Below, piece after piece: positions 1,862 through 8,290 of a stretch of DNA of 64,000 bases. The notes under the pieces were generated by a model. It was not told the DNA's origin and searched no databases. It was given only the letters and a program-made list of their open reading frames with translations. The position numbers and the translations under genes are program-made. Location of the stretch: positions 1 to 64,000 of the forward strand of contig CBDCEW010000090.1 in NCBI GenBank assembly GCA_965215885.1, written 5' to 3'. Each line of letters starts with the position of its first letter. The first letter of the stretch is position 1. Source of the stretch: Candidatus Moanibacter sp. (GTDB taxonomy: Bacteria; Verrucomicrobiota; Verrucomicrobiia; Opitutales; UBA2987).

Positions 1862-1924
1862 GCCTAACGCTATGCGTGATTCGCGGCGGCGCAAGCCGAC
1901 GTTGAGTCGACGCAATTGTTAGGT
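1862..1924 (-). other. attC: integron attC recombination site
   Basis: Minus strand ACCTAAC (contains the upstream ORF's TAA stop) ... TGCGT[C]GA / TCACGCA ... GTTAGGC; 63 bp. GTTAGGC is complementary to the GCCTAAC of the next attC. Confidence 0.88.
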
Positions 1925-2184
1925 ACTTTTTTCTTCATCTATTCGCATTTCGAGTTTCTCCCGTTCCAAGAAGTCCAAAAGATATTTCGCGATTCCACAG
2001 ACCACCATTGTGTGGCTTTCGTCATCAATCAGTTTCCATTGTCGCGTATGTCGCAGTGTCTCGTTGTAATCCGGATCTGCATGCGCACCTTCTTTGTCAG
2101 CGATGGACTTTATCAATTCACGGATAGTAATCCGTGTCTGGAGTTTGGCCCGTTTCGAGTCACGTAGCAACTACGAGTTAATTC

Positions 2185-3618
2185 TTAAGCGGCTTGAAAG
2201 AGGGAGCTGGCAAGATGGGGGCTGAGTTTCTCCGACTTGTGGGTACCACTTTTAGGATCAACGAAGTGGGAGAAACTCGATGGTCGCAGACTGCCCGCCC
2301 AAGTCTCGTATCTGAGTTGCTGCAGTAAGTCTGAAGTGGTTGGGCCCTGCATGGAGCGTTTATCGGTGCGCCACTTGGCCGGCTCGAAGATGCCTTGTTG
2401 ATGGCGCTTGGGATCGGATTGGTAGGAGGCCAGCCACAACATCGAGTAGGCTGCCACGTTGAGGGCGGGAAGGTTTCTGTTGGACGCTTCGGTCCTGACC
2501 TGGGCCTCGCCCATGCCTAAGAGGGTCTTCTCATCGCGGAAGTTGGGCTCTATCTGCCAGCGCCAAAGATAGTATTGGAGAAACTCTTCAAGCGCTAATT
2601 GGGGATCGGTGCAAATCAGGTAAGCGGGCTTTCTGTAGAGCAACTTTGCCTTCTTCTGAAGCCGGTATCGGAGCGGAGCAATGATCAAAAGCTGCAAAGG
2701 GCGTTTTGCTCCGCTCTTGCGCCACAAAAGATCCTTCACCCTCTTGACCTTAAAGCGGTGGCGCTTACCGGCCGCGAAGGCCTCCACATATTCCCACGGC
2801 ACTTCCTGGTCCTTGCGAATCTGTTCGGGCGTGGGAATCTCTGGCCCGTAGCTTGGTCGGCGTCCGGTTTTGGGCGCCTGCCCGGGCATTTTGCAAAGCG
2901 TAGCGTCCTTGCGGATGCGCCCGATCATGGTGGTGCGTTCGGGCAGAGCCTTGAGGAAGTCTCCATTGGTATAGCTGCCGTCGGCCACGACGATCAGTTC
3001 GCGTTCGACCTCCATAGAGTCTCTGAGCAGTGCAACGCGCTGTATGGCCTGTCGATTGAGTTTGAGCTGCTTTTTGCTCTCTTTATAGCATTGGACCTGC
3101 TCCTGTGTGGCTTTTGCCCCCGGCTTGCGCGCGGAGGGCGCATGGGTCAGATCAATAGGAATCATGCGGGCCGAACCGTCCTCTGCGGCAAGGGCGGCGG
3201 AAAGTTGGATGAATCGCTGGGCGAGCACGAGGTTAACTTGGAATTTGGGACCGAGGGGATCTCTGCGCCAGCCCACTCCGTGGATACGAGTTCCACTTTT
3301 TTGCCGTAGGGTGTCGTCAAGTGCTACGACCATGGGCCTATCGGGCGGAAGCATTCGCTCGATCTTCTCACGGATAACCGCGAAGCACTCATCAGGGTCG
3401 ACTCTGCTCTTCGAATACATCCTGTAGTGTGCGCTCCAATCCTCGTATTGGCGTCCGCCCGTCGTGATGATTCCAGTGACGGTACGCCTGCCCAGGCACA
3501 GAAGGGTGCACAAGATGTGCTCTCTGAAGCGATTGAAGCAGCTTGTTGTGGAGCAGGCTTTGGCACACGATCCAATGATACCTTCCAAGGTTTCTAGAAG
3601 TGAGGAGCCGTTTTTTTT
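2185..3618 (-). CDS. DDE transposase (IS701-like), probably translated through a -1 frameshift from the upstream ORF
   Basis: LDDTLRQKSG, VADGSY and YLWRWQIEPNFRDEK motifs; 5' end uncertain. Confidence 0.82.
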   Translation of the reverse strand, partial: KKNGSSLLETLEGIIGSCAKACSTTSCFNRFREHILCTLLCLGRRTVTGIITTGGRQYEDWSAHYRMYSKSRVDPDECFAVIREKIERMLPPDRPMVVALDDTLRQKSGTRIHGVGWRRDPLGPKFQVNLVLAQRFIQLSAALAAEDGSARMIPIDLTHAPSARKPGAKATQEQVQCYKESKKQLKLNRQAIQRVALLRDSMEVERELIVVADGSYTNGDFLKALPERTTMIGRIRKDATLCKMPGQAPKTGRRPSYGPEIPTPEQIRKDQEVPWEYVEAFAAGKRHRFKVKRVKDLLWRKSGAKRPLQLLIIAPLRYRLQKKAKLLYRKPAYLICTDPQLALEEFLQYYLWRWQIEPNFRDEKTLLGMGEAQVRTEASNRNLPALNVAAYSMLWLASYQSDPKRHQQGIFEPAKWRTDKRSMQGPTTSDLLQQLRYETWAGSLRPSSFSHFVDPKSGTHKSEKLSPHLASSLFQAA

Positions 3619-3803
3619 ACACCCACCGGATTGGGAGGGGCATTGGATCGGGCCAGGATCATATGGCCTTTGTCGGCAATAATCCACTCCACCATCTCTC
3701 CTTTGCCAAACTCCATCGCCTGAGCTACCGCCGAAGGCAGATTGATATACCACTGTTCGCTACGCTTGCGCCTGATGAGTTGAACTTTAGTTGGGAATCC
3801 CAT
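3594..3803 (-). CDS. small AbrB/MazE-like DNA-binding ORF inside the IS
   Basis: KVQLIRR..QWYINLPSAVAQAMEFGKGEMVEW resembles the swapped-hairpin pattern; ends over an A8 run. Confidence 0.65.
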   Translation of the reverse strand: MGFPTKVQLIRRKRSEQWYINLPSAVAQAMEFGKGEMVEWIIADKGHMILARSNAPPNPVGVKKTAPHF

Positions 3804-4547
3804 GGGCCATGATCTAGTTACATAACTAGATCACAGTCAAGCTAAATACTTGCTTTTGAAGAAAAAAGGGAAATAAGGGAGCAATATATCTAGTAAAAGG
3901 CCAAACTCCAGTCACGGATAGTAATCCGTGTGTTCATACAAGGTTGCTGAACCCATTCCCTCAACGGAAGCCGATCTTTGGATTTGTCGAAGAGAAGCGC
4001 AAAGACCGCTCTGCCCGTTGCGTCACGCGTCAGTCTACCGGGTATGTGAGTGTGGAGCCCGTCTGCGAACGACGGGATCGATTCAAGTAATCCTGTAATA
4101 TGAAGCTTATGAAGGGGCACCTCTTTGAACACTCGTAAGAGCAACGGTTGCGGCCGATCGCACATTAATTTCCGCAGTTCCACGGCGATGACGCGATAAA
4201 CATCCCTCGCACCACCTGCGAATAGCTCCAGATTCGCTTCGAGAATCGCCAATGAAGCCCGGAAGTCTTCTGATGTTTTGCTCATTTTATTTTTGTCTAG
4301 TATTTAGGTAGACTAAACGCACTTCCCATTAGGTTCATTGAACAAAATACTGAATCATTGGTGGGAGCAGGATAACCTCTTGGGTACCAGCACTCAAGTG
4401 TTTATTCCCGTTGGGATGCACCTGATTTCATAGCTGCGATTTCTACGATTGAAAGAGGTTTGATTACGTTAATGGCGGGTCGTATGGCGCTGATGAGCTT
4501 CGTGAACGTCGCCGGCCCACGACGCTGTGAAAGACGTGATTCGGCTC

Positions 4548-4835: not shown

Positions 4836-5335
4836 TGTGAGTTCTTCCCTCCTTCCCTGAGAGCCTTTTGGGCCGGATTGGCAATGGCTTGTAGAGACGC
4901 AGGATCCAGTGCGATTCGGCCCGACTTTTGCTGGATCATTTGAAGAGTTTCGTGTCGGAGCTGGTAATCTGCGGACTCCAATTTCTCTGGCTTGAAGATC
5001 GCGAATCCAACAATTACGAGACTCGCAACAGCAATAGGTATCAGAGCAGCACCGACTAGCAAATTGCAGAGAGTGGAATTTAGCCTAAAGAAGTATGCCG
5101 CAAGGAGGCAAGTCGGTGTGGAAATCGCACAAAGCCATAGAGCCGGGTTGACAGCGCTGCTCACCTGGACTTTTTGGACGGTCCTACCTGCGAGACTAGC
5201 AAGTTTTTCCAGAATCTCCTCTGCCACGACTCTGTGTATCCCTCTATGTTTGAAGTAGTATTTGGGCAATGCGCCTATTGGTATGAATTGCAATCCTTGA
5301 GAAAACGCAACCATTTGGTGTCTGCGGTTGGTCAA
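4832..5335 (-). CDS. hypothetical two-TM membrane protein (start may lie further downstream)
   Basis: Two hydrophobic segments followed by FKPEKLESADYQL; coupled to 4548-4835. Confidence 0.7.
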   Translation of the reverse strand: MTNRRHQMVAFSQGLQFIPIGALPKYYFKHRGIHRVVAEEILEKLASLAGRTVQKVQVSSAVNPALWLCAISTPTCLLAAYFFRLNSTLCNLLVGAALIPIAVASLVIVGFAIFKPEKLESADYQLRHETLQMIQQKSGRIALDPASLQAIANPAQKALREGGKNSQ

Positions 5336-5808
5336 AAGAGGGAGAGTTGGGAGGGGTGTTTGGCCTTCCGGCGGCGGGGGCGTGTGAGGGTGTGGGCGTG
5401 GGCTAGGATGTCGATAGTGTGGGTGTCGGTCTCTTGGATTTTGGAGGTGTGTTGCAAGGCCAGATCAACGGCGTTGCGAGCGTGTTTCAATTCGTCGTAG
5501 AGGGCGTCGCCCTGGTGGGCTAGGTGTTCCTGAAGGCACTTCAATAAGTAACGGGGAAAGTAGATGCTTCGAGTGACAGGATCGCTGTGCTCCTTGACCT
5601 CGGCGATGCGGTCGAGAATGAATCTCTCGTAGCGCTTGGCGGTCATGCGGAGGCCGCGTTCCTTCATCCACTTTGCCGGCCAGGTGATGGCGTATATCAG
5701 GCCCTTTAGATCGCGATAGAAGACGGTGCGATCTACCTCGCGGTAGAAGGTGCCCTGGATGATATCGAGGAGGTCGTCAGTGGTCTCTTTCGCAGGTGAC
5801 GAGTTCAT
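5332..5808 (-). CDS. hypothetical phage protein
   Basis: 158-aa ORF in the phage-like run, ending QLSLF. Confidence 0.65.
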   Translation of the reverse strand: MNSSPAKETTDDLLDIIQGTFYREVDRTVFYRDLKGLIYAITWPAKWMKERGLRMTAKRYERFILDRIAEVKEHSDPVTRSIYFPRYLLKCLQEHLAHQGDALYDELKHARNAVDLALQHTSKIQETDTHTIDILAHAHTLTRPRRRKAKHPSQLSLF

Positions 5809-6148
5809 GTGTCGGTGGCGGGTTGTGGGTGTGGTGGACGCGGGATATTCTGAGGGCGCGGTCGATCATTTTATTCCCCTGGGAGCGGAGCCAGTTGACA
5901 GCGTGGTCGCGCTCGTCAGCCGTGGCTTCTCGGGTAAGTTTGTAACCTTTCTGGCCCGAGAGAATTTCGCCTTCGCTGAGTTCGGCGAGCTTGCGGCAGG
6001 TCCGTTCGTCCCAGGCGTAAATCTGCTTTACCTGGCGGGCTGTTATCCAATCGCGGCCACGGAGAAATGTCAGGAATTCATCGACGCGGCGATCCTCTTC
6101 GGGATCAACGTGGAGAGTCGGAAATTCTGACTGTTGGAGGGTGTTCAA
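5777..6148 (-). CDS. hypothetical phage protein, possibly winged-helix
   Basis: WITARQV...ERTCRKLAE...ILSGQKGYKL. Confidence 0.6.
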   Translation of the reverse strand: MNTLQQSEFPTLHVDPEEDRRVDEFLTFLRGRDWITARQVKQIYAWDERTCRKLAELSEGEILSGQKGYKLTREATADERDHAVNWLRSQGNKMIDRALRISRVHHTHNPPPTHELVTCERDH

Positions 6149-6218
6149 CGGTTGAAAAGATACTACTCAAATGTATAGTAGTCACTCAGTTCGCAGTAGC
6201 GATTTTATGTCTCGTCAC

Positions 6219-6452
6219 TCATTCTTGAAGCAATGAGATATGACCATCCTCCTCCTTAGCGAATCCGTCTTTGACCATGTCGGCGCGAACTCTTGGACCG
6301 ATGGGTTCCCGGTCGTCGTCAAACCGATCAGTCGATATGCGGCCACCAACATTGCTGATGTATTGGATGTACATGGCATAACGCGCTTCCTTTCGATATA
6401 GCTCCATTATCATTTTGATTCCTCCGTCACTCAGGGGAGATTTCTGCTTCAC
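6219..6452 (-). CDS. hypothetical protein
   Basis: 77-aa ORF co-oriented with the phage genes. Confidence 0.45.
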   Translation of the reverse strand: MKQKSPLSDGGIKMIMELYRKEARYAMYIQYISNVGGRISTDRFDDDREPIGPRVRADMVKDGFAKEEDGHISLLQE

Positions 6453-6794
6453 CGCTTATTCTAACGATTCACAAAGTGCTGTTGGTAAGTTGTTAGCAGA
6501 TTCGGCTTGTTTCTGCCTAAGACTGCTGTTCCTTGTTTCGATATTATGGAAATAAAGCAGATAAGAATTCTCGAGGGAGACACCCTTGAAAAACTCGAGA
6601 GCAGAGTAAACGCCTTCCTCCTGGATGCGGCCACTCCTGTCAGGGACGACCCTGTTCGAGACGACAAACCGAAAGCCAATTGGCAGCCACTTGGAGGGAT
6701 CGTATTTACACCTGATGGTAACGCGATCATGCTGATGGTGGAATACTTTGCCGTCGGGCGTCGTTGGGGGAGATTTCTCGATTCGGTTTCATGG

Positions 6795-7253
6795 CTACTG
6801 CGTGTGGGCGAAATTGAGGAGGGATTCTCCCTTGTGGGCTTTGGCGCGGGAGTGTTCGGTGAGGGTGATTCGGAGTTGGCGAAGGGATTCGATGGGGAGG
6901 TTGCGCCAGTCTTTGTGGAATGCGAATTTGTCGCGGGCGATGGTGATGATGTAGGCCTCGGGAGCGGCGTGTGAGATGGCATAGAAGAGCCGGCGGCGTT
7001 CGCCTTCCTCGGCGACGCTTTCTATGCTTGCCGGGTGGGGTATGAGCCCACGGAGGCGCTTGCGCATGACATCGAATACGAGGTCGTATTCTTTGTGGGA
7101 GAATCCCTTGTGGGATCTGTCGTAGCCGAGGGCTTGGCGGTGGAGTTCATGGCGGGCTTCTGTGTCGTTTTGGCGCACGTCTTCCTTGGCGCAGAGACGG
7201 CGCCAGGTTTTCCAGTAATAGGCTTCCTCGGGGGGGAGTTTTTTGCGTTTCAT
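6795..7253 (-). CDS. Mu GemA/gp16-like protein
   Basis: ARHELHRQALGYDRSHKGFSHKEYDLV pattern; position downstream of gam. Confidence 0.5.
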   Translation of the reverse strand: MKRKKLPPEEAYYWKTWRRLCAKEDVRQNDTEARHELHRQALGYDRSHKGFSHKEYDLVFDVMRKRLRGLIPHPASIESVAEEGERRRLFYAISHAAPEAYIITIARDKFAFHKDWRNLPIESLRQLRITLTEHSRAKAHKGESLLNFAHTQ

Positions 7254-7286
7254 CCTCGTGGCCTTTCTGTCATTGTAGATCTCGTT

Positions 7287-7529
7287 ATGTTGGGTCTTAT
7301 CGTGCAATCTACAGGACTGCTGTTGGACATAGTGGGTGTAATTTTCATCTTCGTTTATGGGATTCCGCCGAGCCCTTATGATATCCCTAAAGGGGGATTG
7401 AGATGGGACGACGGACAGATGTCCGAGGTTACGAAGTTCAAAGATCGATCGAGGCTTGGACTCGGGTTCCTCATTGGTGGATTTGCGCTTCAGTTTGTTG
7501 GGCTGTGGATGAGCTGGTTAATCGCATAG
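7287..7529 (+). CDS. small two-TM membrane protein, opposite strand to the phage genes
   Basis: MLGLIVQSTGLLLDIVGVIFIFVYG...LGLGFLIGGFALQFVG. Confidence 0.6.
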   Translation: MLGLIVQSTGLLLDIVGVIFIFVYGIPPSPYDIPKGGLRWDDGQMSEVTKFKDRSRLGLGFLIGGFALQFVGLWMSWLIA

Positions 7530-7736
7530 GTTAATCAGTGATTTGTTGGCTACCTCTGCGTCGATGAATTCGTAGTGGCCGACGGCGAGTTCCAGGCCGA
7601 TCTGGTCGATGTCTTCGGGGAGGATCTCGTGGTCGTAGGTGGCCGGGTAGCCGTCGACTGATACCAAGGTGATATCGACCTCAGCGAGGGCTTTGGCGGA
7701 TGATGCGTGTTCTTCGAGATGGACGAATAGCTTCAT
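7518..7736 (-). CDS. hypothetical acidic phage protein
   Basis: 72-aa ORF coupled to the gam stop. Confidence 0.55.
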   Translation of the reverse strand: MKLFVHLEEHASSAKALAEVDITLVSVDGYPATYDHEILPEDIDQIGLELAVGHYEFIDAEVANKSLINLCD

Positions 7737-8290
7737 CAGCGCTGTCCCTCGGTGGAGGCCTCATCCTTCTTGATGTTGGAGAGGACTTTTGAGGTGTCGG
7801 TCTTGAGGGGGGTGACTTTGAAGTTCTCGGAGGTCTTGCTTTGGATACCGAGCACTTCGAGCCATTCCTCGTTGAGGCGTTCGCAGGCTTCGAGGTCGAT
7901 CTCGTCGCGCTTGCGAATCAGGTCCTTGACGAGGCCGTGGCGAGGAATCCTGCGAATGGTGGCGGCCGCGTCCGGTATAACGATCTTGCCCGACTTCTGG
8001 AGCCCGAAGGTGCCGAAGGCGGTCTTGATTTTCTTGCGCTTCGCGAACCACTCCGGGTGTTCCCGGCAGAGGCATTCAAGGGCCTCTGCCGCTTCTGCGA
8101 TACGCTCATTGAGGCCGGTCAGAACTTCGCCATCGTCGGCAACGATCATGGTGAGGTGGTTGTCGATGTCGGCCTGAATAGACCGGACTTTGACGGTGGC
8201 CTCGGTGATTTCCCACATGAGTCGGGTAGCGAGGACGATGTCGTCGACTTCTTCGGAGGGTGGGTCTTCTGTGGTGGCTTCTTTGGTCAT
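7736..8290 (-). CDS. gam: Mu Gam-like host-nuclease inhibitor
   Basis: Coiled coil, then EHPEWFAKRKKIKTAFGTFGLQKS and LIRKRDEID...LGIQSKTSENFKVTP. Confidence 0.75.
   Translation of the reverse strand: MTKEATTEDPPSEEVDDIVLATRLMWEITEATVKVRSIQADIDNHLTMIVADDGEVLTGLNERIAEAAEALECLCREHPEWFAKRKKIKTAFGTFGLQKSGKIVIPDAAATIRRIPRHGLVKDLIRKRDEIDLEACERLNEEWLEVLGIQSKTSENFKVTPLKTDTSKVLSNIKKDEASTEGQR

Follow-up and report, generated by a model that had tools for sequence, protein, structure and literature searches.

An insertion sequence with a Tn5-like transposase that duplicates DNA hairpins at its insertion sites

We analyzed a stretch of 64,000 nucleotides from Candidatus Moanibacter sp. (assembly GCA_965215885.1, contig CBDCEW010000090.1, positions 1 to 64,000; referred to from here on as the window), in which an insertion sequence (IS) of 1,774 bp occupies positions 2138–3911 and is bordered on both sides by an exact 20-bp direct repeat. 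The repeat, TCACGGATAGTAATCCGTGT, lies at 2118–2137 and is found again, identical, at 3912–3931. Directly inside the direct repeats are perfect 13-bp terminal inverted repeats (IRs), CTGGAGTTTGGCC at 2138–2150 and its complement at 3899–3911. The element carries two open reading frames (ORFs), ORF A and ORF B, and splits a host gene. The features of the locus, with the direct repeats given as target site duplications (TSDs), are as follows.

1919–2117, minus strand: 3' part of the interrupted host gene (homologue comparison)
2118–2137, plus strand: TSD copy 1, 20 bp (sequence and folding)
2138–2150, plus strand: IRR, the end downstream of the transposase, 13 bp, perfect; the same end in all copies, with family consensus CT(G/T/C)GA(G/C)TTTGG
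2185–3624, minus strand: ORF B, Tn5-fold DDE transposase of 479 amino acids starting at 3624, with D103, D215, and E359 (Pfam DDE_5 and NCBIfam NF049999 above cut-off)
2632–2670, minus strand: clade-specific basic insert 2 of ORF B, about residues 319–331, 9 amino acids longer than in relatives with 5-bp TSDs; candidate hairpin- or junction-binding part (alignment)
3085–3144, minus strand: clade-specific insert 1 of ORF B, about residues 161–180, 11 amino acids longer than in relatives with 5-bp TSDs; candidate hairpin- or junction-binding part (alignment)
3594–3803, minus strand: ORF A, 69-amino acid AbrB/MazE-like (swapped-hairpin) domain, weakly assigned (profile and predicted fold)
3611–3618, minus strand: run of eight A residues (A8) in the ORF A/ORF B overlap, with ORF B in the −1 frame; predicted slippage or frameshift site giving a fusion of about 540 amino acids (relatives)
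3810–3833, no strand assigned: conserved dyad immediately upstream of ORF A, its inverted arms containing two CTAG boxes (recurs in relatives)
3899–3911, minus strand: IRL, the end upstream of the transposase, 13 bp, perfect (sequence)
3912–3931, plus strand: TSD copy 2, identical to copy 1 (sequence)
3932–4285, minus strand: 5' part of the interrupted host gene, of which intact homologues have 185–190 amino acids (homologue comparison)

The original prediction, made from the letters of the window alone, had described 13-bp terminal IRs flanked by a direct repeat, which is borne out by the perfect IRs and the exact repeat above. It had further taken the duplication to be itself a hairpin. The 20-mer does fold as a stem-loop, with a 7-bp stem and a 4-nt loop, but one unpaired base remains at each end, so that the duplication is an 18-nt hairpin plus 1 nt per side and not a hairpin exactly. 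The folding energy is −7.2 kcal/mol (z = −5.75), a stability equaled in 0 of 200 shuffles, and that of the opposite strand is −7.0 kcal/mol (z = −5.39). The 5' part of the split host gene is 76–85% identical to the intact homologues, and the target hairpin forms part of the host reading frame; the target is therefore a chance palindrome in a gene and not a terminator. The idea that the window copy had targeted a terminator was thus rejected, and the copy is also absent from six terminator-like sites. Contigs from public runs X1 and X2, which may be the source samples, cross both junctions of the window copy. A joint that skips the element was not found in the contigs of eight public runs, which, being contigs, do not prove that an empty allele is absent. 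Some parts of the element are present in the RNA run X17, which cannot show expression or slippage.

A BLAST search of the same genome returned 10 matches, namely six complete copies, one degenerate copy, one copy without an end, and two fragments. All six complete copies are flanked by hairpin TSDs (20, 23, 32 with one mismatch, 22, 22, and 21 bp) of unrelated sequence, and the surviving ends of the four incomplete copies also adjoin a hairpin. Four of the six target hairpins come from dispersed repeats and are also present, singly, at further places (33, 64, 15, and 9), which shows that they were in one copy before insertion; the other two, that of the window included, are found in the genome only beside the element. 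We noted that at least four families of dispersed hairpin repeats, located on many contigs of this genome (11–66 pattern matches each), serve as targets. Further, the element itself recurs on a 5-kb contig of run X9, there at a new site and flanked by a hairpin TSD of 24 bp.

Relatives were retrieved with an alignment of 48 proteins, which gave 77 genome loci from 310 stretches and 80 metagenome loci from 582, and a scan of the genome contigs with a single protein gave no match where the alignment scan did. The relatives are about 40–65% identical and belong to Verrucomicrobiota, Bacteroidota, Acidobacteriota, Kiritimatiellota, and others. Element ends were placed by the conserved IR motif, independently of any duplication. 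One chromosome, G061, had 89 matches, from which 82 copies were recovered with both flanks, 53 of them with a TSD of 18–34 bp. Among 68 distinct elements outside G061 with at least 40 nt on both sides, a TSD of at least 12 bp was present in 25 (16 of 29 from genomes and 9 of 39 from metagenomes), and in a later set hairpin TSDs were seen in 13 of the 16 elements with a flank on both sides. Regardless of duplication, 315 of 331 ends adjoin a hairpin (153/167 outside G061 and 162/164 in G061), compared with a background of 1.2–1.7% (238 of 20,000 for random positions of the genome and 317 of 19,187 for positions within these loci); related genomes are non-independent samples, and the contrast to background is still about 60-fold. 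Because the six complete copies of the original genome all have differing hairpin TSDs and random positions so rarely adjoin a hairpin, the observation in the window is beyond chance.

Several loci stood apart. L248 and L251 have ends without a TSD, and no ends were resolved at L243, L247, L249, L250, and L258. In four acidobacteriotal loci at 32–34% identity (L268–L271, from G351, G282, and G176), no matching left end was found within 3.7–4.2 kb upstream of the transposase, and the right ends adjoin hairpins; these may be larger transposons, since their left ends were not found. By eye, ORFs upstream in L268 resemble XRE- and Ner-type regulators, and L270 and L271 have a similar XRE-like ORF. 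L290 (G500) is a 2.4-kb member with hairpins at both ends and a differing upstream ORF, which we take to resemble DUF4338 proteins.

To describe how the TSD relates to the hairpin, we scored 73 non-tandem TSD sites (6 from the genome of the window, 25 from others, and 42 from G061), which reduced to 58 distinct sites once repeated hairpin cores had been removed within each genome group. The original prediction had suggested checking whether duplications in homologous elements are long, variable, and palindromic. They are: TSD length ranges from 16 to 34 bp with a mode of 22 (73 sites), and there is no short-TSD class. Across the 58 distinct sites, TSD length tracks hairpin length (r = 0.87), and Watson-Crick pairing across the TSD dyad is found in 84–98% at positions 2–8, 36% at position 1, and 22–43% at the eight positions outside. 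Of the 52 symmetric sites, 51 have a loop of 3 or 4 nt; stems are of 6–15 bp. The TSD extends past the stem by 1 nt on both sides in 31 sites and by 0 nt on both sides in 13, so that 44 of the 58 end 0 or 1 nt outside both feet. The proposal that the cuts fall at the feet of the stem, with TSD length equal to hairpin length, therefore stands in that the ends lie at the feet and the lengths track one another; it does not stand as an equality, as the TSD is mostly the hairpin plus 2 nt or, less often, plus 0, and the cutting itself is read from footprints. A sequence consensus at the cut was rejected, as the first and last TSD bases are mixed without base preference, and targeting of terminators as a general rule was likewise rejected, as a U-tract-like flank is present at only 8 of the 58 sites. 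A single repeated hairpin family in G061 took seven insertions in one orientation and six in the other, i.e. without orientation bias. We conclude that the behavior is real, general, and tightly rule-bound. In 11 of the 73 scored sites, the TSD pair contains one mismatch. We also noted that, at sites where a single base distinguishes the two TSD copies, the better palindrome is often the copy that has its altered arm next to the element (four cases, C102:121512–123285 of the window's own genome, L099, L186, and L207, and two cases against, L087 and L196, too few to judge).

The element is also found in tandem arrays separated by hairpins. G061 (L208–L235) has 14 tandem junctions, each with a hairpin spacer of 19–23 nt, seven of which are identical; this identical 20-nt spacer occurs in seven arrays at differing sites, several of them with matching outer TSDs. 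Loci L215 and L217 have the same flanks around one and two copies, respectively. Another chromosome, G062 (L177 and L182), contains an array in the order hairpin-IS-hairpin-IS-hairpin, and run X1 contains an IR-hairpin-IR junction with a 32-nt hairpin at about single-copy depth.

We next consider which part of the element could carry this trait. ORF B contains the full Y352-R355-E359-K366 motif, and D103, D215, and E359 are invariant in the alignment. Its predicted structure (pLDDT 80, pTM 0.83) is nearest to Tn5 transposase (E = 2.6e-9). It scores 194 bits with NF049999 (IS701_3; cut-off 170), 69 with NF033540 (cut-off 150), and 29 with NF049921 (cut-off 250). The proteins of the element matched no IS30 model at E ≤ 0.1, and all four IS4 models scored below cut-off. 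When 46 proteins were placed in a tree, a single clade (SH-aLRT 99) contained all 34 hairpin-associated rows and none of seven distant relatives. These seven, at 23–26% identity and with similar ends, include five with an exact 5-bp TSD, a sixth with matching CTCAG flanks, and a seventh that was not resolved. The hairpin clade is longer than the 5-bp group in two regions, both basic, with 44–49 versus 34 residues around 156–200 and 25–27 versus 18 around 312–338, and both inserts are missing in all seven distant relatives. On the basis of this alignment, the two basic inserts are candidates, and candidates only, for hairpin or junction binding.

ORF A was considered as the reader of the hairpin and rejected because, in a branch represented by chromosome G523, copies without it still duplicate hairpins: this branch has an unrelated helix-turn-helix-like upstream ORF and no AbrB-like ORF, and its hairpin TSDs are of 18–23 bp in four of four copies. 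The assignment of ORF A rests on PF04014, which is matched by 41 of 53 homologues at E ≤ 0.1, the window copy itself scoring below cut-off, and on its model topology and best fold matches (MazE, C56, SpoVT, and AbrB, none at E ≤ 0.001). The CTAG dyad upstream of ORF A, which has a half-site at 3888–3894 inside the left end, is likely an operator for the AbrB-like protein. In the window copy, this dyad is the sole internal hairpin that fits the target rule of the element (10-bp stem and 4-nt loop). As for how the two ORFs are joined, all 119 of the 119 loci that were scored have a run of A8–A10, with ORF B in the −1 frame in 110; a small number of loci with other starts lay outside this scoring. 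The codon phase of the run varies, which suggests that transcriptional slippage joins ORF A and ORF B. In-frame forms of 537–545 amino acids exist in the protein collection, some of which may be homopolymer errors. A stimulatory hairpin after the A8 run was looked for and none was found (folding with DNA parameters, z = 0.11).

A DDE enzyme links either 3' end of its element to one strand of the target, and the spacing of the two joins determines the TSD (available part of PMC5678879). Strand transfer at the 5' feet of a cruciform, followed by gap filling, is the best explanation of the footprints described above, and we consider it probable. With both target strands folded, the two cut points would lie close together whatever the length of the stem, and the enzyme would keep its fixed active-site spacing while the hairpin arms loop out; a rigid transpososome could thus give duplications of 16–34 bp. 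Host gap filling of the long 5' overhangs would then copy the hairpin. Each insertion would leave two fresh targets beside the element, by which the tandem arrays would be explained. Specificity would reside in the DDE protein, where the two basic inserts are the candidate parts, rather than in ORF A; the more likely role of this AbrB-like product is in regulation or as an aid to binding of the ends. We further propose, tentatively and at somewhat less than even chances, that a multi-phylum clade of Tn5-fold transposases, by gaining two short basic inserts, has come to capture a four-way junction as its target in place of duplex DNA cut with a fixed stagger of 5 bp. Such an enzyme would cut in the manner of a junction resolvase at the 5' feet of any short-looped hairpin, so that nothing but structure could direct insertion; it would also renew its own targets and build tandem arrays.

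Several points weigh against cruciform capture and the role given to the inserts. First, a matching TSD is missing in 43 of the 68 relatives with both flanks, which share 0–3 nt, and in 29 of the 82 G061 copies (17 in tandem arrays and 12 single). We note that the 43 unmatched relatives have differing hairpins on both sides (35) or a hairpin on one side (8) and that 12 cross-matches exist between the left flank of one locus and the right flank of another; such reciprocal swaps fit chimeric assembly, collapsed repeats, or recombination. In the Luteolibacter sp. Populi chromosome, the flanks of L027 and L028 are exchanged, consistent with an inversion between two copies. Second, 14 of the 58 distinct sites depart from the 0- or 1-nt rule, some by several bases. 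Third, the stem is of just 6–8 bp in 36 of the 58 targets. Stems of this length seldom extrude as cruciforms unaided, and the target may therefore need help from a protein or have to be captured as a single strand; their shortness argues for a folding that is assisted or transient. Fourth, the role of the inserts is a correlation on a single branch, and the tree was made by a quick method only and includes no reference IS. Finally, the extrusion of both strands is inferred from the footprints.

The alternative that survives best is that one strand only folds, in a lagging-strand gap, a transcription bubble, or an R-loop, and that the transposase captures this hairpin while the other strand forms a loop, or attacks the strands in turn, leaving the same footprint. 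The short stems and the 3- to 4-nt loops, which fold readily as single strands and make poor spontaneous cruciforms, speak for such a pathway. The repeated target was entered in both orientations at similar frequency (7 versus 6), symmetric overhangs dominate, and G-T and A-C mismatches in the stems are both rare, with no clear bias relative to the element, and we therefore regard single-strand capture as rather unlikely. We consider it very unlikely that an ordinary short-stagger insertion took place beside a hairpin which was then copied by polymerase slippage or template switching: the few TSD pairs with a one-base difference close to the junction (11 of 73 with one mismatch) are what error-prone repair might leave, but there is no short-TSD class, the unmatched elements share only 0–3 nt, and 44 of 58 sites have a tight, symmetric register. 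A target that stays duplex, in which a protein dimer would read a symmetric sequence, bend the DNA, and cut 16–34 bp apart, has in its favor the AbrB-like domain encoded by the element, since domains of this class bind palindromes in duplex form. However, the targets have only complementarity in common and no sequence, the spacing shifts by single bases from 16 to 34 and tracks stem length, and the branch without the AbrB-like ORF behaves alike, and we judge this extremely unlikely. An assembly artefact, or a circle integrating by recombination with a hairpin that it carries, is scarcely credible and already contradicted because the TSDs are site-specific: many relatives do come from short-read assemblies with chimeric flanks, and IR-hairpin-IR junctions do exist, but every site is flanked by a TSD of its own, of which two are unique in the genome, the TSDs contain the unpaired end bases, and hairpin TSDs are present in assemblies of cultured strains (L034 and L036), in the single-contig chromosomes G061, G062, and G523, and in one unbroken contig of run X9.

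Capture of a folded target with joining at the feet of a cruciform thus becomes a testable model in this clade, which offers a rule at the level of single bases (58 distinct natural sites), intact recent copies, and an enzyme of Tn5-like fold for which relatives have been solved, together with a natural control, namely a sister group whose duplications are of the ordinary 5-bp kind and which lacks the two short inserts. If the model is true, insertion sites would mark the places at which hairpins or cruciforms arise in living bacteria, and DNA shape could aim a transposase in place of sequence or a guide RNA. A practical consequence is that programs which look for IS with short TSDs will mis-call the ends of this clade because the hairpin TSD extends the apparent IR. 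Elsewhere in the window, a separate and apparently intact IS4-family transposase lies at 94–1263 on the minus strand, about 850 bp from the element (NF033592, 255 bits; DUF4372 and DDE_Tnp_1), and a run of ORFs at 5332–8290 on the minus strand resembles, by eye, genes of phages or transposable phages (e.g. a Gam-like ORF at 7736–8290).

Finally, we compared the element with known systems. IS that target repetitive extragenic palindromes (REP; ISPsy8, ISPpu9/10, and ISRm22) likewise insert into palindromic repeats, and several of the present copies lie in dispersed hairpin repeats. However, these IS enter a fixed point in a conserved repeat and duplicate 0–6 bp (available part of PMC1525189), whereas the present clade takes unrelated hairpins, two of them unique in the genome and one in coding sequence, and duplicates them whole. 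The strict IS4 motif is present in ORF B, with the full YREK and, for D(60–110)D(100–150)E, spacers of 111 (just over the range) and 143. Strict IS4 elements differ in having a single ORF without a frameshift and a TSD of about 10 bp, whereas the present clade has two ORFs, TSDs of 16–34 bp, and IS4 profile scores below cut-off. The likeness to IS701 consists of the NF049999 score above cut-off, the Pfam DDE_5 match, and short IRs starting with CT. IS701 elements duplicate exactly 4 bp, in agreement with the figure of about 4 bp given in the original prediction, and have the YREK tyrosine in 4 of 27 (De Palmenaer et al. 2008, available part of PMC2266710), whereas in the present clade Y, R, E, and K are invariant in 34 of 34 members and the TSDs are long. 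The element is thus assigned to IS701 by profile, yet it is not a typical member, and we do not file it as one because the 4-bp duplication is lacking. An unnamed sister group of plasmid and genome transposases (e.g. WP_099513491.1 and WP_067777305.1) has similar ends (CTCGACTTTG) and the same DDE core. This group differs in its 5-bp TSDs (such as CTAAG, CTTAG, ATTAG, and CTGAG), in lacking ORF A and the inserts, and in having mostly F for Y and R for K in the YREK motif.

Long variable repeats are a feature of IS1549/IS1634, and hairpin targeting is a feature of other IS1182 members. Our literature search, with ISfinder (where the clade may already have a name) and most subscription journals outside it, returned no account of hairpin duplication by IS701-like elements or by this clade and no test of the cruciform model of 2017. 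IS1272 (IS1182 family) resembles the present element in taking hairpin targets of variable sequence but removes the target hairpin and leaves no TSD, whereas the present element keeps the hairpin on both sides (available part of PMC5678879). The behavior of targeting and duplicating inverted repeats, with duplications of 19–26 bp, was described for IS1630 of Mycoplasma fermentans (IS30 family; Calcutt, Lavrrar and Wise 1999, J Bacteriol 181:7597; as given in the available parts of PMC2853133 and PMC3317919, and cited in PMC7648426), and it is seen in the present element as well. IS1630 differs in its IS30-type transposase; the present element is Tn5-like, without an IS30 match and with a two-ORF layout, and its clade, unlike IS1630, extends over several phyla and over high- and low-GC genomes. 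The behavior is therefore a rare one that is already known from IS1630, found here in an enzyme family for which we met no description of it, and by analogy the element can be said to behave like IS1630. Further, pathway b in Fig. 13 of Wan et al. 2017, drawn there as a possibility, has joining at the 5' feet of a cruciform duplicate the whole stem-loop (available part of PMC5678879), and the footprint left by the present clade is the one that this pathway predicts.

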